A DNA stretch of 64,000 nucleotides from Thermoproteota archaeon (lineage in GTDB: Archaea; Thermoproteota; Thermoprotei; Gearchaeales; Gearchaeaceae). Positions 3,792 through 14,333 of this stretch are shown here, piece by piece. Both the position numbers and the translations under genes were made by a program. The DNA lies in the NCBI GenBank assembly GCA_032249235.1, contig JAVVGF010000001.1, positions 32,001 through 96,000 of the forward strand. The letters run 5' to 3'. The notes below the pieces were generated by a model that had not been told where the DNA came from, made no database searches, and worked only from the letters and a program-made list of their open reading frames with translations. Every line of letters begins with the position of its first letter. The first letter of the stretch is position 1.

Positions 3792-4841
3792 ATGAAACCG
3801 AATCAAAATGTAGCCATAATAGGCTATGGCGGTTATGTTCCTTTGAGAAGGATTAAAGCCAGTGAGATTGCAAGGATTTGGGGTAAAAGTGATCGTGCAC
3901 TTCCTATTGAAGAAAAATCTGTTGCATATATCGATGAAGATACTGCAACGATGGCCGTCGAAGCAAGTCTTAATGCATTAAAAAGGGCTAGAATAGATCC
4001 ATCAGAAATAGGTGCGGTATTTGTTGGTACGGAATCAAAAATTTATACAGTCAAGCCCACATCTACAGTTGTAGCTGAAGCTTTAGGGATAACTCCTGCT
4101 ACGTTAGCATCTGATTATGAGTTTGCATGTAAAGCAGGTACCGAAGCTATACAAACATCGATCGGCTTAGTCGCTTCAGGAATGGTGAAATATGCTTTAG
4201 CAATTGGCTCAGATATAGCTCGGGGAAGACCAGGTGATGAACTTGAATATACAGCTGGTGCGGGCGCTGCAGCTTTCATACTTGCTAGAAGTGGTATTCA
4301 TGATGAAATAGCTGTAATAGAAGGTAGTGTTTCTTATGTTACTGATACGCCAGATTTCTGGCGAAGAGAAGGACAAATATATCCAATGCATTATTACAGA
4401 TTTACAGGAGAACCAGCATATTTTAATCATATTAGGAATGCTGTTTTGAGATTGATGGATAATTTAGGATTAAAGCCATCAGATTTCAATCATGTTGTTT
4501 TTCATCAACCAAATGCAAAATTTCCTCAAGAAGTTGCTAGATCTTTAGGTTTCAAACCTGAACAATATAAGACAGGATTACTCGTTCCTTTGATAGGTAA
4601 TACATATGCGGCTGCATCATTATTAGGCTTAGCTGCAGCATTGGATGTTTCAAAACCTGGAGAAAGAATACTCGTAGCCTCTTTCGGTTCTGGAGCAGGA
4701 AGCGATGCTATTTCTTTAGTTGTTAAAGATGGGATAGAGAAAGTTAGAGACTTAGCACCTAAAATAATGGACTACATTTCAAAAAGAATCTATGTTGACT
4801 ATGCATTATATGCGAAATATAGGAATAAATTCAATGAGTGA
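3792..4841 (+). CDS. HMG-CoA synthase (archaeal)
   Basis: DEDTATMA, EFACKAGT catalytic Cys, FHQPN, GNTYAA, SFGSGAGSD; first gene of the HMGCS-thiolase-DUF35 cluster. Confidence 0.95.
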   Translation: MKPNQNVAIIGYGGYVPLRRIKASEIARIWGKSDRALPIEEKSVAYIDEDTATMAVEASLNALKRARIDPSEIGAVFVGTESKIYTVKPTSTVVAEALGITPATLASDYEFACKAGTEAIQTSIGLVASGMVKYALAIGSDIARGRPGDELEYTAGAGAAAFILARSGIHDEIAVIEGSVSYVTDTPDFWRREGQIYPMHYYRFTGEPAYFNHIRNAVLRLMDNLGLKPSDFNHVVFHQPNAKFPQEVARSLGFKPEQYKTGLLVPLIGNTYAAASLLGLAAALDVSKPGERILVASFGSGAGSDAISLVVKDGIEKVRDLAPKIMDYISKRIYVDYALYAKYRNKFNE

Positions 4842-5992
4842 AAGTGAGCGAGGTTTATATAACCGGTATAGGCTATACACAAATTTCTGAGCATTGGAAT
4901 AAATCTATAAAACAACTGGCCTTAGAAGCTAGTATCAATGCAATAAAAGATTCAAATTATTTGAAGCCTGATGTTATTATAGTATCATGTTCTCTTTCAA
5001 GTTTTTTGCAACAACAAGAATCACTAAGCAATTTATTAAGAGACTACCTAGGTTTTACGAAATTACCTAATATAAGAATCGAAGCAGGCGAATGCTCAGG
5101 GGCTGCAGCTTTAGAAATCGCATCTAGTATGATAGAAAGCGGAAGATACAAAAACATATTAGTCATAGGTGTAGAAAAACCATCAGATAGATTGCCTCAA
5201 GAATATAATGCGGCATTATCTTCTCTGCAAGATCGAGATTATTATTATTATAATGGAATAACGCATGCTTCATTATTTGCATTAATTTATAAAATGTACA
5301 TGAAAAAATACGGTTTGAAACAAGAAGATATTGCTTCTTTTGCTGTTCATGATCATAAAATGGCCTTGAATGTCGATTACGCACAATATAGATTTTCTTT
5401 AAGCATTGATAGGATTTTATCTTCTCCCATCGTTGCCGAACCTATAAGATTGTTTGAAATATTTCCTACTTCTGATGGTGCAGCTGCAGTTATGATATCC
5501 TCAAAAGATCAAGTTGAAAATAAAGATTATGCTATAAAGCTTGATGCTATAACTTCAGCAAGTGACATAAATTTTGTATACAGGAATGATTTTCTAACTT
5601 TCTACTCGCTTCAATATGCTTTTGAAGAATTAAGGAAAAAGTCAAAAATAGCTAAAAGCGACATAAATTTCTTAGAAATTCATGATTCCTATACTATTGC
5701 TGCTCCTCTTATTATTGAAAATTTAGGCTTTGCAGATAAAAATGAAGCATGTCGAATGTTAAAAGAAGGAGAATTCGAAAAAGACGGAAGTCTACCTTTA
5801 AATCCTAGCGGAGGCCTTAAGGCTAGAGGGCATCCTATAGGAGCTACACCTTTATATCAAGTATGCGAAGCTGTTCTTCAATTAAGGGGTAAGGCATCGA
5901 ATCAGGTTAAGAATGCAGAGGTTGGCTTAGTTCAATCAATGAATAACGTAGCTGATCAATCTTATTTAATTTTATTGAGGAGATATAAATGA
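4838..5992 (+). CDS. acetoacetyl-CoA thiolase family protein (SCP-x-like)
   Basis: GVEK, SDGAAA, EIHD, NPSGGLKARGHPIGAT; position in the mevalonate cluster. Confidence 0.88.
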   Translation: MKVSEVYITGIGYTQISEHWNKSIKQLALEASINAIKDSNYLKPDVIIVSCSLSSFLQQQESLSNLLRDYLGFTKLPNIRIEAGECSGAAALEIASSMIESGRYKNILVIGVEKPSDRLPQEYNAALSSLQDRDYYYYNGITHASLFALIYKMYMKKYGLKQEDIASFAVHDHKMALNVDYAQYRFSLSIDRILSSPIVAEPIRLFEIFPTSDGAAAVMISSKDQVENKDYAIKLDAITSASDINFVYRNDFLTFYSLQYAFEELRKKSKIAKSDINFLEIHDSYTIAAPLIIENLGFADKNEACRMLKEGEFEKDGSLPLNPSGGLKARGHPIGATPLYQVCEAVLQLRGKASNQVKNAEVGLVQSMNNVADQSYLILLRRYK

Positions 5993-6381
5993 GCGCTCCT
6001 TCATACTGGAGGGAAAAAGTATATAGATATAGGCTTATCGCTACATATTGCGAGAACTGCAACAAGAAGTTTTATCCTCCAAGACCTATTTGTTTATATT
6101 GCAATAATCAAAATCTTAAAGAAGTAAAATTACCTAACACGGGCACTCTTCTCGAATATACACAAGTTTTTCAAACATTTCCTGAATTCTCAAAGCTTGC
6201 ACCTTATTATCTTGGCTTAATAAAATTGGATGATGGAACAATTATAGTTGCTCAATTGACAGACGTTGAACGTTCAGAACTTAAAGAAGGAATAAGAGTT
6301 GAAGCTGTTTTTAGGAAGATGTATGAAGATGGCGAAGCAGGATTAATTTATTATGGCATAAAATTTAGACCTTTAGCTTGA
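5989..6381 (+). CDS. DUF35 Zn-ribbon/OB-fold scaffold protein
   Basis: CENC..YPPRPICLYC plus OB fold ending YGIKFRP; follows the thiolase. Confidence 0.93.
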   Translation: MSAPSYWREKVYRYRLIATYCENCNKKFYPPRPICLYCNNQNLKEVKLPNTGTLLEYTQVFQTFPEFSKLAPYYLGLIKLDDGTIIVAQLTDVERSELKEGIRVEAVFRKMYEDGEAGLIYYGIKFRPLA

Positions 6382-7287
6382 GAGGTATAAAGGTTTAATA
6401 AAATCATTGTGATCTTGAATAACAATTCTATATTCTCCTTCTTTTCCTTTTTCTAAATTTCCTCTAACTAAAGCTATTTCTCCTTTTTTAAGCATCTCGC
6501 AGTATCTAAGTTTAAAGGAAACTATCGTGTATTCTTCGCTGTTTTTACTTCTAGCTGAATAAACAGATGGGAAGAAGAAACTTTTTGAATCGTTAATTAT
6601 TTCAATTTCAATTTCTTTTTTACCGAGAATTCTACTAGGTTCCAAATTTTTTCTCAAAATAAATTTTAAAGAATATATTCTGTCTTTAAACCTTCCTTCG
6701 ATTATTTTTCTTCTTTCTAATAGTTCAAATAAAGGAAATTCTATTATATTTGTTAACTCTCGTTCTTGGTATAGCTTAATCAAATCTTCTCTACTAAGAG
6801 GCATTAATATACCTCTTTCTCTGAGATTTTTTAAAGCTTTATAAACAATTTCAGGGTTTTTTCCATAGTATGCAATATCCATGTCTGAATCCTCTTTATG
6901 TAAACCAACAAGTATAGAACCTCCTATTCCAAAATTTCCCAATTCTTCTTTAGCTTCACTTGCGATTAGTTCGACAAATTCTTTAACTACTTTTTCAACA
7001 TCATCATTAGGTTCCTTGAAGATTCTTTTTAATTTTGCAATAGGATTATAATATACTTTAATCTGGCTTTTTTCGAGAATAATTGCTTCCCTTTTCAAAT
7101 ATTTTGACTTTTTTGTAATATTATAATCAACTTTTTTAATAAATTCTTCTATATTTTTTATTTTATGATATTTTTCATTTTCTTTTATATATTTTGGTAA
7201 AACAAATAATTCATCATATTTTGGATTATAGTAGATTACATAATATATATTATCATATTTATCTTTTATAGCTGCTAATTCTAGCAT
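6373..7287 (-). CDS. Pol-beta superfamily nucleotidyltransferase (COG1665-like)
   Basis: GIGGSILVGL...SDMDI motif; C-terminal OB-like ALVRGNLE segment. Confidence 0.75.
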   Translation of the reverse strand: MLELAAIKDKYDNIYYVIYYNPKYDELFVLPKYIKENEKYHKIKNIEEFIKKVDYNITKKSKYLKREAIILEKSQIKVYYNPIAKLKRIFKEPNDDVEKVVKEFVELIASEAKEELGNFGIGGSILVGLHKEDSDMDIAYYGKNPEIVYKALKNLRERGILMPLSREDLIKLYQERELTNIIEFPLFELLERRKIIEGRFKDRIYSLKFILRKNLEPSRILGKKEIEIEIINDSKSFFFPSVYSARSKNSEEYTIVSFKLRYCEMLKKGEIALVRGNLEKGKEGEYRIVIQDHNDFIKPLYLSS

Positions 7288-8366
7288 TATTTTTTAAAGA
7301 AAGGAGGTTCTTGAATTCTTGCATCATAGAATTTATCTCTAATCTTAATCTGTATTGTTCCTCCAAGATAAAAATAATTTGCTTTAATGTAACCCATCGC
7401 TATTCCTTTTCCTTGACTAGGTGAATAACCTCCGCTAGTTATTTTACCTATCATTTTTTTACCTGCATATACTTCGGAGCCTTTTCTAGGTAGAGGTCCC
7501 TTATCTTTCATGATAAAACAAGCCCTAATTACATCTACTCCTTCTTCAATAATCTCTTCTATTGCTTTTTTACCAATATATTCACCTTTATTCAATGAAA
7601 AAATCCAATATCTTGCTCTTATTGGATCTATTTCCTCATTTATTTCATTACCATAAAGCAAAAAACCTGCTTCTAATCTTAATATATCTCTACTAACGAT
7701 ACCGCATGGTTTGATTCCATTATTTACAAAGTTTAACCATAATTTCTTACCCTCTTCAATACCTGTTATTATTTCAAAGCCGTTTTCTCCAGTCCATCCA
7801 CTTTTGCTTATTAATAGAGTCTTAACGCCCATTATTTCGTAATCTTTAAGAAAGCTTTCTCGCTCGAGATTTAAGGGTAGGAATTCTAATTTCTCTATTT
7901 TTCTGCCTTGAATTGCAAGCATTGCAGTTTTTAAAGTTATATCCTCAACTTCAACATTGCAATTTAAAAGTTTCGACTTTTCTTTAATCCAGTTCAATAC
8001 TTTTATCCTATTAATTGCATTGCATACTATTATAAATTCCTCTTCTTCGAGCATGAATAAGGATAAGTCATCTATAAATCCTCCTTTTTCATTAAGCATG
8101 GCTGCCGGAATGATTATTTTACCTGGTTTTAGCTTCAAAACATTTTTAGTTATGAGATAATCAAGTAAATGCTTTGAATCTTTTCCTTTAACTATTATTC
8201 TTCCCATATGAGAAACATCAAATACTCCCATCTCATTTCTAACAGCGAGACTTTCTTCTATTGAATTTGTAAAGCTCAATGCTACTTCCCATCCTGCAAA
8301 CTCTCCAATTTCTGCTTTTTTACTAACATGTATTTCTTTAAGAGGCGAAGGAATTAAGTTTTCCAT
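7287..8366 (-). CDS. gcvT: glycine cleavage system T protein
   Basis: FAGW, FDVSHMG, GWTGENGFE, LRLEAG, GKITSG. Confidence 0.95.
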   Translation of the reverse strand: MENLIPSPLKEIHVSKKAEIGEFAGWEVALSFTNSIEESLAVRNEMGVFDVSHMGRIIVKGKDSKHLLDYLITKNVLKLKPGKIIIPAAMLNEKGGFIDDLSLFMLEEEEFIIVCNAINRIKVLNWIKEKSKLLNCNVEVEDITLKTAMLAIQGRKIEKLEFLPLNLERESFLKDYEIMGVKTLLISKSGWTGENGFEIITGIEEGKKLWLNFVNNGIKPCGIVSRDILRLEAGFLLYGNEINEEIDPIRARYWIFSLNKGEYIGKKAIEEIIEEGVDVIRACFIMKDKGPLPRKGSEVYAGKKMIGKITSGGYSPSQGKGIAMGYIKANYFYLGGTIQIKIRDKFYDARIQEPPFFKK

Positions 8367-8404: not shown

Positions 8405-8430
8405 CCTTTTTTTAATTACTAAAAAATAGT

Positions 8431-8504
8431 AGCGCCGTGGTGTAGCTGGTCAAGCATGTAGGGCTTTGGACCCTGAGACCCAGGTTCGAATCCTGGCGGC
8501 GCTA
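8431..8504 (+). tRNA. tRNA-Gln (anticodon TTG), intronless, CCA not encoded
   Basis: Acceptor AGCGCCG/CGGCGCT (A1-U72, typical of archaeal Gln); anticodon arm TAGGG-CTTTGGA-CCCTG; T arm CCAGG-TTCGAAT-CCTGG. Confidence 0.96.
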
Positions 8505-10175
8505 TTTGCGAAGGTATTTTCCTTTGAGTTGATTTAATAAGCTGTCAATTTTTGTTTTAGATTCTTTAAGAGTTTTTGAATGAATCTCTACCATTCTTTT
8601 ATACATTTCGGGCTGTATTTTCTTCATCTTATGTGAATTTCTTGTCTCCTTTAGTGCATTTCGGGCTTTTACTAATTTTGAATATTCAAGGTTGATACCT
8701 GATATGATAGATTTTGTCTCTGGATATTTTGTAATCAAGAAATTAGAAATCTTTTTTAGTTCGTTTTCCTTATTTTCGATTTCTCTTCTTAGATTATTCA
8801 GCCTTGCTGTATAATCATGTTTCTTTATTAATCCTTTATCTAATCGTAAGTCGAGTTGTTCAATTTCTTCATAATCTAATATCAAACTTTCAATAAGATT
8901 TATGAATTTAGGAATTTCAGGAATTGCGACTATCTTTTCTAATACAGGCCTTCTGCTATATCTAGTATATATAAAGACAAAAAATAATAGAATTATTATA
9001 ATTACTAATATTTGATTAACTGAGTTCAAAGAATATATGAAAGGATTTATTGTTGTTTTTAGTGATATATTAAAATTATAATTAGGATAAACATTAGATA
9101 AATAATATATATACTCGTTTCCGTCTTGCTGTGTTACTAATTTATCTGGAATAGGATACAATTCTGCATTAACCAAGTATTTGATAGTTATAATTAGCGT
9201 GAAATTATCTATGATATAAAAGTTGGATTGTAAAGGATTAAATGATAAGTTTATCTGTTGTTGATTTCCGTTTACACTTCCTATTTTGTTAATATCTATT
9301 TCGCTTGTGATTATAATTTTTGCTTTTGTATAGTTCAAGTAAGCGTTAGCATAAATAGTGCTAAAAAGAGGATATCTTAATGAAACCGCGTTGTTAGTAT
9401 AGCTGAGATCTCCAAAATCATCTCTCACAGAGATTATACTTGCATCAGGTAAGATATATGGGATCCATGTTCTTACAGTTTGATTAAAACCTATGTATTC
9501 AATGATAAAAGTATCTATTATCTTTACCTTTTCCAAGTTATCTATTATTATGTTTCTAGTTAAGCTGTTTATTTTTACCCAAGGTAGATCATTTGGAGGG
9601 TTGAAGGAAAGTGTAAAAAGTGTTGTATTATATGGGGATAATGCCGTTGAATTATAATAGATATAGTAAGTACCGTTTTCATATTTTTGAATTGCATTTT
9701 TAGGTGATGATATTATAATGTTTGTTGGTGGGAAAGAAAATTTGACCTTTGTTGTTACAGTTGAAATAGGTAAGTCTGTCATAAGATAAGCGAACATATC
9801 CGTTTTTACACCTGACTGTATTTGATTAAAAATTCTCTGATCATATACCCTAGTTATCGTGATGTTTCCTTCAAAACCATTTATAGGAATTCTGAACCCG
9901 AGATAGTCATCTTTAATCGCTCCCCATTGAATTGGATATTTAGGGTTTGTCTGTAAAGAATAAAGAGATTTGTATTCTTCTGGCGTTAAATAAATTGTTA
10001 AATTAGAAATTTGTCCTTTTATTTCTACATTATCTTGAACAATAATAAATCCTGGGAAGATCTGAATGTATCTGTTCACTTTCAATTGGTTTTGTTGTTC
10101 AGCAGCAACTGTGATGATACAAATCGATAATACTATTAGAGTGAGTAACAAAGTTGCAATGCTTTTTCTTTGCAT
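8502..10175 (-). CDS. secreted type I membrane glycoprotein, ribophorin I (OST1/RPN1)-like
   Basis: Signal peptide, beta-rich ectodomain with ~10 N-x-S/T sequons, LTRNIII...LPDASIISVRDDFGDLS...LRYPLF motifs, one TM helix, cytosolic helical tail. Confidence 0.65.
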   Translation of the reverse strand: MQRKSIATLLLTLIVLSICIITVAAEQQNQLKVNRYIQIFPGFIIVQDNVEIKGQISNLTIYLTPEEYKSLYSLQTNPKYPIQWGAIKDDYLGFRIPINGFEGNITITRVYDQRIFNQIQSGVKTDMFAYLMTDLPISTVTTKVKFSFPPTNIIISSPKNAIQKYENGTYYIYYNSTALSPYNTTLFTLSFNPPNDLPWVKINSLTRNIIIDNLEKVKIIDTFIIEYIGFNQTVRTWIPYILPDASIISVRDDFGDLSYTNNAVSLRYPLFSTIYANAYLNYTKAKIIITSEIDINKIGSVNGNQQQINLSFNPLQSNFYIIDNFTLIITIKYLVNAELYPIPDKLVTQQDGNEYIYYLSNVYPNYNFNISLKTTINPFIYSLNSVNQILVIIIILLFFVFIYTRYSRRPVLEKIVAIPEIPKFINLIESLILDYEEIEQLDLRLDKGLIKKHDYTARLNNLRREIENKENELKKISNFLITKYPETKSIISGINLEYSKLVKARNALKETRNSHKMKKIQPEMYKRMVEIHSKTLKESKTKIDSLLNQLKGKYLRK

Positions 10176-10234
10176 AATCGTTCTTTACTTATAAGGTTAA
10201 ATAAATATTAAATCTTTATTCGACATTAAGAAAT

Positions 10235-11530
10235 ATGACTAGCCTAATAGACACGGTTCCTGAAGAAGTGAAACTTAAGCATAAGGTGGCACTTCCTGAA
10301 GGGATGGGCGAATTTTATTCTTTAAAATTCATCGAAGAAAAGCTTAGCAAGAATAGAATATTTCCTCCAGAAAGGATATTCAGTCCAGATCCTCCCTTTT
10401 TTTCATTCATACCGTCTGCAGTAGATTATGTTTCGTTAAGTAGTGAATTACTTACAGCTTATACACCTTATCAGCCCGAAGTTTCTCAAGGTCTTTTACA
10501 GATTCTTTTTGAATATCAAAGCATGATATGTGAACTGACTGGAATGGATGTTTCAAATGCTTCTCTTTATGATCATTCTACAGCTTTATGCGAAGCTATA
10601 AGAATGGCATTGAAGTATACAGAAAGGAACAAGGTTTTGTTACCTAAATATATGAGGAGGGAAAGAAAGTTAGTCGTTAAAAGTTATATGGAGACGATAG
10701 GTGTAGAATTATACGAATATAAGATTGAAAAAGAAACAGGAAAGATCGATCTTTCAGATATAGAAAATAATTTAAAAAATGCAGCATGTATTTATGTTGA
10801 AAATCCTTCTTATTTCGGCATTATCGATGATAATCTTCCTAAACTTTCCGACATAGTTCATAAAAATGACTCACTTTTCATAGTAGGAGTAGAACCAATA
10901 TCTTTAGGCATAATAAGAGAACCGGGTTCTTATCAAGCAGATATAGTTGTGGGCGATGCTCAACATTTAGCCATACATCCTTTTTATGGGGGGCCTTCTT
11001 TGGGTATAATTGCTTGTAGGGAAGAATTGAAGTTGATTCATCTAATGCCTGGAAGAATAGTAGGATGCACAACAACTTTAGATGGTTCAGAACTCGGTTT
11101 TTCATTAGTGCTACAAGCAAGAGAGCAACATATTAAGAGGGAGAAAGCTACTTCTAATATAACTACAAATCAGTCATGGTTAGCAGTAAGGGCAGCCATA
11201 TATTTAGCTTTGTTAGGTAAAGAAGGATTAAAAAGGCTAGCCGCAAGAATATTACTCAATACACAAAGACTGAAAAAGGTATTAGAAGATTTTGGTTTCA
11301 TATCCAAATTTCCTCGTGCTTTGCATTTTAGGAACTTACTTATGAGCAAAGAGGAAATTCATAAAATTCAAAACGAGATGTTGAAAAAGGGCTATTTCTT
11401 TGGTAAATTATTGAGCAGTGAATTTGAAGGTTTCGAGAATTCAATATTGCTAGGAGTAAGCGAGTATCAAGATTCAAAATCTTTTGAAGAATTAAGAAAT
11501 GCATTATTAGAGGTGACTAGAAATGTATAA
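10235..11530 (+). CDS. gcvPA: glycine dehydrogenase subunit 1
   Basis: TAYTPYQPEVSQG, NASLYD, MPGRIVG, REQHIKREKATSNITTNQ. Confidence 0.96.
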   Translation: MTSLIDTVPEEVKLKHKVALPEGMGEFYSLKFIEEKLSKNRIFPPERIFSPDPPFFSFIPSAVDYVSLSSELLTAYTPYQPEVSQGLLQILFEYQSMICELTGMDVSNASLYDHSTALCEAIRMALKYTERNKVLLPKYMRRERKLVVKSYMETIGVELYEYKIEKETGKIDLSDIENNLKNAACIYVENPSYFGIIDDNLPKLSDIVHKNDSLFIVGVEPISLGIIREPGSYQADIVVGDAQHLAIHPFYGGPSLGIIACREELKLIHLMPGRIVGCTTTLDGSELGFSLVLQAREQHIKREKATSNITTNQSWLAVRAAIYLALLGKEGLKRLAARILLNTQRLKKVLEDFGFISKFPRALHFRNLLMSKEEIHKIQNEMLKKGYFFGKLLSSEFEGFENSILLGVSEYQDSKSFEELRNALLEVTRNV

Positions 11531-13064
11531 TCAAGCTAAGTATAGAGAAAGATTAGTATTCCAATACGAGGATGTTCGAAGTGATCATGCTTACTGGGTC
11601 AATGATGAAGAATTAAGTAAAGCATTATCTTTAATTCCAGAAACGATGAGAAGAAAAGAAGATCCAAACATACCTAATCTTCCTGAGAATTTAGTTGTTA
11701 GACATTATACTAGGTTAGCTAGGATGAATCATGCAATAGATATTTCAACATATCCTTTAGGTTCATGCACTATGAAATATAATCTTAAAAGCATGGAAAG
11801 GCTTGCAACAATTAAAGAGATCGCATTATTACATGATAGTTATCCTGAAGAGTATTGTCAAGGTATTCTTGAGCTTCTTTATTTGCTTGAACAATACTTA
11901 TGCGAAATAACAGGCATGGATAAGTTTTCCTTCCAGCCTTCTGCGGGTGCTCATGGGGAGCTGACTGGTGTATTCATTATTAAGAAATATCACGAAGTAA
12001 ACGGCCAAAAGGATTTAAAAAATGAAATTATCGTGCCAGACTCTGCACACGGTACAAATCCTGCAAGCGCAGCTATGGCAGGATTCAAAGTTGTAGAGGT
12101 TAAATCTAATAAAGAAGGAACTGTAGATATTGAGGATTTGAAATCTAAGGTTTCGAAAAGGACTGCAGGTTTAATGTTAACAAATCCTAACACTTTAGGC
12201 TTATTTGAAAAAGATGTACTCGAGATATCTAAAATAATACACGAAGTTGGAGGATTGCTTTATTATGATGGAGCTAATCTAAATGGTATTTTATGCTATG
12301 CAAGACCTGGCGATATGGGCTTTGATATTGCTCATTTAAATCTCCATAAAACATTTGGTACTCCACATGGTGGAGGAGGTCCTGGTGCGGGTCCATTAGG
12401 TGTTAAATCTTTTCTCAAAGAATTCCTTCCAGTTCCTATAATTGAGAAAAAAGAAAATAAATACGTTCTTAATTATGATCTTAAGTATAGTATAGGGAGA
12501 GTTAAAGAGGGTTTTGGAAATACCCTAGTTCTTTTGAAAGCCTTGCTATATATTTTAACTAAGGGTTATGAAGGATTAAAGGAAGCAAGAGAAAAAGCAG
12601 TAAGGAATACAAGATATTTCCTAGAACAAATGCAAGGTATTGAAGAGATTTCTTTAACACATAATCCTAAGCTTATGAGATATCATGAATGCTTATTGAG
12701 TGCTTCTGTATTAAAGAAAAAAACAGGCATAGATGCAAAAGATATAGCGAAAAGAATTTTTGATTATGGTTTTCATCCTCCCATGATTTACTTCCCATTG
12801 ATCGTAGATGAAGCATTGTTAATAGAATTTACAGAAGATGAGACTGAAGAAAATATAAAACAATATGCTCAAGTTCTTAAAAGAATAATACGCGAAGCAT
12901 ACGAGAATCCTTCTATTTTAAAAAGCGCTCCGCATAAAACAGCTATTGGCAGATTAGATGAAGTAAAAGCTTCACATCCTAGAACTTTAACATTGTCATG
13001 GAAAAAAGCTAAAGAAAGATATGATGAACTTTTGAAAAAACTAGCTAATTATTCTGCCGATTAA
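11523..13064 (+). CDS. gcvPB: glycine dehydrogenase subunit 2
   Basis: PLGSCTMKYN, SAHGTNPASA, HLNLHKTFGTPHGGGGPG PLP motif. Confidence 0.96.
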   Translation: MYNQAKYRERLVFQYEDVRSDHAYWVNDEELSKALSLIPETMRRKEDPNIPNLPENLVVRHYTRLARMNHAIDISTYPLGSCTMKYNLKSMERLATIKEIALLHDSYPEEYCQGILELLYLLEQYLCEITGMDKFSFQPSAGAHGELTGVFIIKKYHEVNGQKDLKNEIIVPDSAHGTNPASAAMAGFKVVEVKSNKEGTVDIEDLKSKVSKRTAGLMLTNPNTLGLFEKDVLEISKIIHEVGGLLYYDGANLNGILCYARPGDMGFDIAHLNLHKTFGTPHGGGGPGAGPLGVKSFLKEFLPVPIIEKKENKYVLNYDLKYSIGRVKEGFGNTLVLLKALLYILTKGYEGLKEAREKAVRNTRYFLEQMQGIEEISLTHNPKLMRYHECLLSASVLKKKTGIDAKDIAKRIFDYGFHPPMIYFPLIVDEALLIEFTEDETEENIKQYAQVLKRIIREAYENPSILKSAPHKTAIGRLDEVKASHPRTLTLSWKKAKERYDELLKKLANYSAD

Positions 13065-14333
13065 ATAATGCGGAGTTGCTTCTTCAATTAATGATTCTTT
13101 GAATTTACCTATCAGGCTATTATCTTCAGTTTTTATAATCACACATCTGTAATCTTGAGCTCTTGCTTCTAAAAATCCTTTTTCTCCTTTTCCTGTAATT
13201 AAGACTTTGAGAATTTTTCCTATAAACTTTTCATTCTTCTTAAGAGTTATTTCATCGCATATCTTTACGAGCTCTTTCGATCTTCTTTTCTTAATTGAAT
13301 CGGGTAGTTGAATTAATGAAGCAGCTTTAGTCAAAGGTCTCTGTGAATATTGGGCAACATGAACCTTGTCGAACTCAATTTCTTTAATTAATTTAATTGT
13401 GTTCTCGAATGCTTCTTCATCTTCACCTGGATATCCTACAATTATATCGGTTGCTATGAACAAATCTGGATGTTCGCTTCTCAGATCTTTTATGAAATCT
13501 TTAAATTCTTTTACTGTATGCATTCTTTGCATATCTTTCAATATTCTATCATCGCCGCTTTGAACAGGAACATGACAGAATTTGTATACGTGTTCATCAT
13601 GATATAGTTTCTTTAGTCCATTAACTATCCTAAAACCGAACCATGGAGTAAACATTCCTATTCTTATTCTATATTCTCCTTTAATCTCTAACAAGCTTTC
13701 AACAAGCTCAATCAAGTTAGTATTAATATCTAAGCCATATACAGCGGTATCTTGGGCAGTTAGATATATCTCTTTAGCTCCTCTTTCAATTGCATCCTTA
13801 AAAGCTTCCTTAATCAGAGAAGGTCTATAACTATAAAGAGTTCCTCTAGTATATTTTACAGCACAGAATGAACATGAGCCTAAACAGCCTGATGCAATAG
13901 GTAATTCATATGGACCTTTACCATCATAACTAGGTATAATTTCATAAGTTCTATCGCTTCCTCCTATGAATAAATTACTTTCTATTTTGTCTTTAGTAAT
14001 TATAATAGGTATCTCCTTTATTAATGAGGGCGTTACAAATATTGCATTTTTGTTCACATTGTATAGCTTGAATGGATTAAGCTTAACCATGCAACCAGTA
14101 ACTATGATCTTAGCGTTGTTTTTTTCAGCAATTTTAGAATATTTCTCTAAAGCGTGAATGGCTTTTAATTCTGATTCATATCTTACTGCACAAGTGTTGA
14201 TTATGATCAAATTAGCTTCTTCAGGATTTTCTGTTTTAATAAATGATAGTGAATCTAAGGATTGAGAAATGAACCTACTATCAGCTTCATTAAACGTGCA
14301 TCCATATGTTTCAATAAAGTACTTGAGTTGCAT
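13041..14333 (-). CDS. tRNA t6A methylthiotransferase (archaeal e-MtaB/CDKAL1-type radical SAM)
   Basis: ETYGCTFN, INTCAV, GCMV, GCLGSCSFC, C-terminal TRAM domain. Confidence 0.9.
   Translation of the reverse strand: MQLKYFIETYGCTFNEADSRFISQSLDSLSFIKTENPEEANLIIINTCAVRYESELKAIHALEKYSKIAEKNNAKIIVTGCMVKLNPFKLYNVNKNAIFVTPSLIKEIPIIITKDKIESNLFIGGSDRTYEIIPSYDGKGPYELPIASGCLGSCSFCAVKYTRGTLYSYRPSLIKEAFKDAIERGAKEIYLTAQDTAVYGLDINTNLIELVESLLEIKGEYRIRIGMFTPWFGFRIVNGLKKLYHDEHVYKFCHVPVQSGDDRILKDMQRMHTVKEFKDFIKDLRSEHPDLFIATDIIVGYPGEDEEAFENTIKLIKEIEFDKVHVAQYSQRPLTKAASLIQLPDSIKKRRSKELVKICDEITLKKNEKFIGKILKVLITGKGEKGFLEARAQDYRCVIIKTEDNSLIGKFKESLIEEATPHYLIGRIIS

Follow-up and report, generated by a model that had tools for sequence, protein, structure and literature searches.

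Does an archaeon outside the Asgard lineage encode a genuine ribophorin I, a subunit of the eukaryotic oligosaccharyltransferase (OST), and, if so, what might the protein do there? The question is raised by a gene on the reverse strand at positions 8502 to 10175 of a 64,000-nucleotide stretch of genomic DNA, hereafter the window, from a Thermoproteota archaeon (assembly GCA_032249235.1, contig JAVVGF010000001.1, positions 32,001 to 96,000). Asgard archaea are usually said to have ribophorin I (RPN1 in human, Ost1 in yeast) as one of their eukaryotic signature proteins, and an earlier note, made from the sequence alone, had proposed that a homologue is encoded here by a non-Asgard host of TACK (Thaumarchaeota, Aigarchaeota, Crenarchaeota, Korarchaeota) type. 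We find that the 557-amino-acid (aa) product is almost certainly a true, very diverged archaeal member of the ribophorin I (RPN1/Ost1) family, since profile homology, the Pfam matches of its relatives, and the fold all agree. The host, too, had been placed correctly: its four closest genomic relatives in a species-representative collection are metagenome-assembled genomes of Crenarchaeota, Thermoproteota (two) and Thermoprotei, and the family is widespread in the window's own phylum.

Routine annotation returns nothing of the kind. A Pfam scan of the protein gave no Ribophorin_I domain (PF04597) at E ≤ 10 and a single meaningless match (E 1.5), an NCBIfam scan gave no match, and the Ribophorin_I model found nothing at E ≤ 10 in the whole genome (a 1.43-Mb assembly in 18 contigs, 91% complete); the curated PF04597 model does not, in short, recognize the protein directly. 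These blanks, like the many N-x-S/T sequons and the beta-rich ectodomain that are common among archaeal surface proteins, would suit a generic glycoprotein of S-layer or immunoglobulin (Ig)-like type, resembling RPN1 by chance or convergence. The Pfam miss is better read, however, as a limit of sensitivity, because 29 of 40 relatives pass the same model, and because, of 401 genomes drawn evenly from the phylum, Pfam detects the family in 59 (none of the four others belonging to the window's order being among them), whereas a profile built from the family itself detects it in 231.

These relatives came from two sources. A word-indexed database holds six close ones, 44–99% identical and 550–561 aa long, none with a precomputed Pfam domain; the 90%-identity cluster has a member labelled "hypothetical protein" in the sole source naming one. 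A phmmer scan of 1.84 billion representatives returned 44 proteins at E ≤ 1e-3, most of them 520–640 aa long, and most matches cover both ectodomain and tail, running from residue ~150–200 or from the N-terminus to the C-terminus. Pfam was run on 40 of the 44 (all except P0003, at 84% identity, and the fragments P0017, P0018 and P0034): 29 scored above the Ribophorin_I gathering score (25.5–91.7 bits), one reached 24.5 bits, and ten gave no match, among them the five nearest (P0014–16, P0019, P0020). Indeed, all 10 closest distinct relatives are Pfam-negative, and identity to the Pfam-positive ones is 14–23%. The nearest ESM Atlas clusters are likewise archaeal (Thermoproteota, Bathyarchaeota, Nitrososphaerota), with PF04597 on 35–58% of their members, and one of them is automatically named "Ribophorin I family protein". 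The Pfam-positive proteins of these three groups share the length class (~520–640 aa) and the architecture of the window protein, whose order-level clade, unlike them, falls below Pfam detection.

The decisive sequence comparison was made between profiles. An alignment of the protein's own clade (A3: the query, five close homologues, and five Pfam-negative relatives, 11 rows), chosen against circularity, was compared by hhalign with an alignment of 23 Pfam-positive archaeal proteins (A6), and the two matched with 521 columns aligned (25–556 versus 23–570), a probability of 100, and E 6.4e-59. Against PDB sequences, the A3 profile found the cytosolic domain of a Lokiarchaeon OST1 (8whn_A) at E 3.2e-13 and human RPN1 (6s7o_E) at E 0.0016 (187–547 versus 213–607), and a six-sequence alignment (A1) already reached 8whn_A at E 3.7e-6. 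The 40-row family profile (A2), which contains Pfam-positive rows and so is not independent evidence, matched human RPN1 over its full length at E 2.5e-44 (residues 11–564 versus 8–607), then the Lokiarchaeon domain 8whn_A (1.1e-28) and Ost1 of yeast (4.8e-16), with a keratin coiled coil following at 0.0097. In the A2 alignment to human RPN1, the family consensus "leReIvid...veD" pairs with "MTRVIEVSHWGNIAVEE", "lp.na.nisvrDsfGpl" with "LPAAAQDVYYRDEIGNV", and "slRyplen" with "RPRFPLFG", so that the three motif parallels drawn in the earlier note all fall in register. That these links might rest on the helical tail alone was considered and ruled out, as the Pfam matches and structural alignments cover residues 26–412. 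Judged by sequence comparison, then, the protein is homologous to bona fide ribophorin I members over the ectodomain, beyond the tail alone.

The gene and the domain layout of its product are as follows, all on the reverse strand:

8502 to 10175: complete gene, whose product is the 557-aa protein of the ribophorin I/Ost1 family (open reading frame and translation; ATG start, TAG stop at 8502–8504)
10101 to 10175: residues 1–25, probable signal peptide (R3/K4, hydrophobic core 6–23, V-A-A before E26)
9591 to 10100: residues 26–195, first extracellular beta-sandwich domain (model strands 30–192; aligns to lumenal domain 1 of RPN1/Ost1)
9045 to 9590: residues 196–377, second, membrane-proximal beta-sandwich domain (model strands 200–376)
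8955 to 9044: residues 378–407, single transmembrane (TM) helix (model helix; aligns to the single TM helix of RPN1/Ost1)
8505 to 8954: residues 408–557, basic cytosolic four-helix bundle, net charge +13 (model helices)

This is the architecture that the earlier note had read from the sequence (signal peptide, beta-rich ectodomain, one TM helix, and a helical cytosolic tail of ~150 aa), and it is seen both in the sequence and in an AlphaFold2 model of the 557-aa protein (40-sequence alignment; mean predicted local distance difference test score, pLDDT, 89.7; predicted template modelling score, pTM, 0.67). In the model, beta strands occupy residues 30–376 in two blocks, followed by one long helix, 378–407, containing QILVIIIILLFFVFIY, and then by cytosolic helices at 421–446, 452–483, 485–516 and 522–554. 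The two strongest 19-residue hydropathy windows lie at residues 5–7 and 384–386. For the probable signal peptide, a call made by reading the sequence, the model has a helix at 3–19 and then pLDDT below 50 at residues 21–25, and structural alignments to mature RPN1/Ost1 start at residue 26–27 of the archaeal protein. The second beta domain holds the conserved motifs LTRNIIIDN, LPDASIISVRDDFGDL and LRYPLF and is the region where relatives most often match Pfam Ribophorin_I (profile positions ~250–436). As modelled, the protein thus has a type I topology, with two tandem non-cytosolic beta-sandwich domains and one TM helix, and ends in a predicted cytosolic four-helix bundle.

The fold comparison is equally one-sided. 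Foldseek searches of the PDB returned eight best matches that are all human or yeast RPN1/Ost1 chains (E 1e-24 to 3.8e-14), the next being an integrin at 1.9e-5, and VIA-align scored the same eight chains at Z 27.8–23.6 over residues 26–412 or 26–550; global TM-scores are just 0.41–0.54 because the domains are hinged. The next unrelated family in VIA-align is the N-terminal beta domain of M1 aminopeptidases/LTA4 hydrolase, with Z 13.8 and over a single domain. TAF2 chains in TFIID entries are also among the next structural neighbours of the beta domains (Z up to 13.8). A generic surface glycoprotein is therefore barely credible: profile-profile, PDB-sequence profile, and structure searches refute it, the hhalign E-value to Pfam-positive proteins and the wide gap below the eight RPN1/Ost1 chains both speak against it, and domain order agrees along the full length, TM helix and cytosolic bundle included. 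The profile and structure searches suggested with the original proposal hence put RPN1/Ost1 on top, and S-layer or generic Ig folds without RPN1 similarity did not come out.

Set beside human RPN1 (OST-A; 6S7O chain E, 8B6L chain O), the archaeal protein is alike in its whole architecture, from signal peptide through cytosolic four-helix bundle, and shares the aligned motifs R-x-I-x-V/I, LP..A....RD..G and R-[YF]-P-L; the structural match is the strongest found (Foldseek 1e-24, VIA-align Z 27.8), yet identity is just 13–16%. Whereas human RPN1 faces the endoplasmic reticulum (ER) lumen, the ectodomain of the archaeal protein faces the cell exterior. For yeast Ost1 (6EZN chain A, 6C26 chain 1), the ectodomains and TM helix match (Foldseek 3.8e-14 to 3.2e-15; VIA-align Z 23.6–26.0 over ~360 residues), but the solved chain stops near residue 476, soon after the TM helix, and is without a counterpart of the 150-aa archaeal bundle.

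Mammalian RPN1 touches the ribosome through this cytosolic bundle. The closest solved relative of the archaeal tail is the cytosolic domain of OST1 of Ca. Prometheoarchaeum syntrophicum MK-D1 (8WHN), which comes from an Asgard archaeon where ours comes from a Thermoproteota archaeon; both tails are basic. By VIA-align, 140 residues of the 142-residue 8WHN chain align to model residues 416–556 with Z 15.7, an rmsd of 2.8 Å, and 24% identity, and by Foldseek with TM 0.78 and rmsd 2.7, while the net charge of the tail is positive in 11 of 11 members of the clade (+7 to +16). The 8WHN structure was reported in J Biol Chem in 2024 (PMC11417166), where human ribosomes were pulled down by the cytosolic domains of both MK-D1 OST1 and human OST1, but not by the extracellular domain. 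By analogy, the basic four-helix bundle of the window protein is the putative counterpart of the ribosome-binding domain in human RPN1 and Lokiarchaeon OST1. A clade invisible to standard annotation thus keeps the whole RPN1 architecture, including a candidate ribosome-binding tail absent from the solved yeast Ost1 chain.

About ten N-x-S/T sequons had been counted in the ectodomain of the protein, and exactly the ten named are present, five in the first beta domain (N58, N104, N167, N175, N183) and five in the second (N231, N281, N309, N324, N369), with none in the 150-aa cytosolic part. Shuffled ectodomains average 5.1 sequons (sd 2.0) and reach ten in 2% of cases; N104 and N281 are kept in 6/6 close homologues and N183 in 5/6. 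The ectodomain of the RPN1-like protein is probably itself N-glycosylated.

How far does the family extend beyond this genome? At E ≤ 1e-5, the 231 genomes matched by the A2 profile fall in 102 of the 161 genera of the phylum sample, and, among the matches listed, at least 194 of the 231 reach E ≤ 1e-20. Full-length homologues occur in several families of the window's own class, for example in G095 (548 aa, E 4.2e-25) and G157 (546 aa), one of which is a closed genome and the other a two-contig one; the class holds many closed single-contig genomes. The survey also identifies genomes in the classical crenarchaeal class, G095 and G157 with their full-length homologues among them, where the function of an RPN1-like protein could be studied. 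A recent transfer of the gene from an Asgard archaeon or a eukaryote appears very unlikely on several counts: the spread of the family over those 102 genera, a G+C content of the gene region (0.30) like that of the rest of the window, and a gene order (gcvT, RPN1-like gene, gcvPA, gcvPB) that is kept in 4/4 relatives. In these relatives the RPN1-like protein is 35–52% identical and its neighbours mostly 60–90%, a faster divergence that is typical of an exposed protein.

The claim of a homologue in this genome thus stands, whereas its supposed rarity outside Asgard archaea does not, both on these counts and because occurrence in TACK archaea is already in print. OST1 and OST3/6 are stated to occur in eukaryotes, TACK, and Asgard archaea (PMC11417166). 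In a 2023 Nature paper the prokaryotic versions of Ost1 and Ost3 are still called "previously reported in Asgard archaea" (PMC10307638), and PMC8993221 mentions non-catalytic OST subunits for "some Asgard"; a 2016 survey had found no prokaryotic homologues of such subunits (PMC4973528). Literature searches at the level of listings and abstracts found no paper devoted to TACK ribophorins. Biological novelty is accordingly modest, this being a diverged branch of a family widespread in Thermoproteota; the principle is already stated in PMC11417166, and what is added here is breadth, proof at the level of structure, and a mechanism that can be tested. Taken together, the window clade and the phylum survey make the RPN1 scaffold a common Thermoproteota trait and not an Asgard invention.

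What, then, would a ribophorin I do in such a cell? A search of the genome for the catalytic subunit, one of the checks originally suggested, found a single intact AglB of 713 aa on another contig than the RPN1-like gene (G000:C4, locus L001 655–2796), with the motif WWDYGYW. It matches PF02516 (STT3) at 106.4 bits and PF21436 and PF22627 above their cut-offs (STT3-PglB core, AglB core), and W535-W536-D537-Y538-G539 is invariant in 13/13 aligned sequences; with its STT3 N-terminal domain, AglB core, and WWDYG, the protein is by sequence an STT3/AglB. AglB was detected in 356 of the 401 sampled phylum genomes. The same search had been meant to cover OST3/6- and Wbp1-like genes, and it succeeded in part: a sub-threshold OST3/6-like gene lies beside AglB, whereas Wbp1/OST48 was not found. 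The OST3/6-like product is a 134-aa protein encoded 1.1 kb from AglB (G000:C4, locus L007 1420–1824), with three helices in its low-confidence AlphaFold model (pLDDT 63, pTM 0.31), and 2/5 of its database homologues carry a precomputed PF04756. The locus reads:

G000:C4: AglB, divergent from gcvH, followed by a gene for a 192-aa membrane protein and then by the 134-aa OST3/6-like gene

This arrangement is kept in 3/3 relatives whose locus reaches far enough. Genes of the 134-aa type also lie 0.3–3 kb from AglB in three other families (G054, G349, G180/G166) and 7 kb from it in a fourth (G006), and are on separate contigs in eight other genomes; a narrow profile of the protein finds 19 of 401 genomes, too few for asking whether the protein and the RPN1-like gene tend to occur together. 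The membrane part of Ost3 has a three-helix relative in DC2. According to PMC5674889, contact of OST with the translocon is mediated by DC2 and KCP2.

From the eukaryotic and Lokiarchaeon homologues, a mechanism can be proposed to which we give slightly better than even credence. The signal peptide would be cleaved and the protein would sit in the membrane of the cell, next to AglB/STT3 and the SecYEG channel; the cytosolic bundle would hold the translating ribosome, the outer domains would face, present, or shield emerging polypeptides, and sequons would be glycosylated while the chains emerge. The RPN1-like protein, AglB, and the OST3/6-like (DC2-like) protein would then make up a minimal OST with three parts, of the type (OST-A) that docks at the translocon. 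The whole statement, a type I membrane ribophorin I glycoprotein acting beside AglB and SecYEG, we consider probable, with moderate confidence. Its extension to the phylum, namely that Thermoproteota, the classical crenarchaeal class included, run a three-subunit, ribosome/SecYEG-docked OST made of AglB, a ribophorin I homologue, and a DC2/OST3-like protein, is offered tentatively, as possible and somewhat short of probable. Were it true, N-glycosylation of the mammalian OST-A type, coupled to the translocon and carried out during translation, would be older than the Asgard-eukaryote line.

A number of observations weigh against placing the protein at AglB. Archaeal AglB is active as a single subunit in vitro. 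In the eukaryotic complex, Ost1 is linked to Stt3 by Ost5/TMEM258. None of the partners of human RPN1 (TMEM258/Ost5, OST48, DAD1, RPN2) was found in the archaeal genome, which is 91% complete, in searches whose control genomes included no eukaryote: the best Ost5/TMEM258 candidate reached E 0.166, and its reading frame contains a stop; Wbp1/OST48 and DAD1/Ost2 gave nothing, and ribophorin II gave nothing with a control that matched in no genome, so that this last blank says little. The RPN1-like gene and AglB lie on different contigs, and in the phylum genomes the nearest such pairs, among the matches listed, are 14.7–16.8 kb apart and most are farther. The 134-aa protein scores 25.2 bits against the TM part of OST3_OST6 (PF04756; cut-off 27, E 1.3e-5, positions 185–284), and its profile finds nothing significant among PDB sequences (the best OST-related match is TMEM258, E 2.4). 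Several families of the same class give weak matches to the family profile or none (in family f3, 6/23, all weak), and for this reason an RPN1-like protein is not a general requirement of AglB.

These points lend some weight to a rival in which a protein of ribophorin fold acts without AglB, as a ribosome tether at the SecYEG site or a chaperone on the outer face, and was recruited to OST only later, in the Asgard/eukaryote line. Besides the lack of linkage and of the Ost5/TMEM258 bridge, it could appeal to the ribosome-binding tail, the best-conserved feature held in common with the characterised archaeal homologue, and to the fold of the beta domains, which recurs in the M1 aminopeptidase/LTA4 hydrolase neighbours described above. 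We nonetheless judge this rival unlikely, though not negligibly so: the family is an OST subunit in every organism where it has been studied (6S7O, 6EZN, 8B6L), most of the phylum genomes in the sample contain AglB, and another accessory gene of OST type lies near AglB here. Action beside AglB and SecYEG is accordingly the reading that we prefer.

Other candidates from the same genome were set aside. Two further matches to OST3_OST6 cover the thioredoxin part alone, and their control was positive in 12/14 genomes. A TRAP_beta match (34.1 bits, profile positions 19–96; G000:C1:180729–180956, reverse strand) is unspecific, with a control positive in 7/14 genomes; it lies in a 933-aa open reading frame outside the window, probably for a large surface protein with a beta-sandwich of generic kind; TRAP_alpha had no match in the genome. 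The 192-aa predicted membrane protein of the AglB locus (L001 3186–3764, reverse strand) belongs to no Pfam family and is 54–65% identical in the 3/3 relatives reached.

The immediate surroundings of the RPN1-like gene are made up largely of glycine-cleavage genes:

7287 to 8366, reverse strand: gcvT, flanking the RPN1-like gene
8430 to 8505, forward strand: tRNA-Gln with anticodon TTG (63.3 bits in Rfam), separating gcvT from the RPN1-like gene
10176 to 10234, strand not assigned: 59-bp A+T-rich spacer, common to the divergent gcvPA and presumed, by inference, to be the promoter region
10235 to 13064, forward strand: gcvPA and gcvPB, divergent from the RPN1-like gene

At its 3' end the tRNA-Gln shares bases with the TAG stop of the RPN1-like gene, which runs in the other direction. 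With this opposite-strand tRNA between it and gcvT, the RPN1-like gene is probably transcribed alone from the 59-bp spacer, where an A/T-rich TATA-like stretch lies ~25–45 bases upstream of the ATG in a genome of only ~31% G+C. One hot-spring metatranscriptome run holds 54% of the sampled words of the gene, and its contigs at ≥95% identity cover 8644–9003, 9211–9365, 9542–9918, and 9943–10173. The library may include DNA, and the uncovered stretches 6300–7888 and 11975–13100 are uninformative either way; the coverage fits expression of the RPN1-like gene, as a weak indication.

Two observations concern the family profile itself. Weak matches in two genomes of family f4 (G063, G119) were rejected as orthologues, being 250–262-aa soluble proteins that share the helical motif alone, and three genomes of family f5 that were checked encode soluble proteins of 260–276 aa alongside a full-length homologue. 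Rich in cysteine at the N-terminus (motif C-P-G-L ... C ... C ... C) and lacking a predicted TM helix, these 250–276-aa proteins (G119, G063, G380, G157, G095) match the RPN1-family profile at ~427–555 with their C-terminal helices (E 1e-7 to 6e-13); they are not ribophorins, and they explain at least some of the weak same-class matches. Seven genomes, furthermore, have one in-frame stop in each RPN1-family match (TAG in G328, G232, G298 and G107; TGA in G159 and G340; TAA in G316), which might reflect breakage of the gene, a mistake in the assembly, or a pair of open reading frames.

As to the remaining neighbours, the glycine-cleavage genes of this genome are split over two loci, each with an OST-type gene, and both arrangements are kept in relatives. 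A 304-aa open reading frame at 6373–7287 (reverse strand), directly downstream of gcvT, belongs to no Pfam family and occurs in 4/4 relatives with 40–60% identity. Farther along, at 3792–6381 on the forward strand, lie adjacent HMG-CoA synthase-like, thiolase, and ChsH2/DUF35-type zinc-ribbon OB-fold genes, which we take to be the usual archaeal set for acetoacetyl-CoA and HMG-CoA formation, and thus ordinary.

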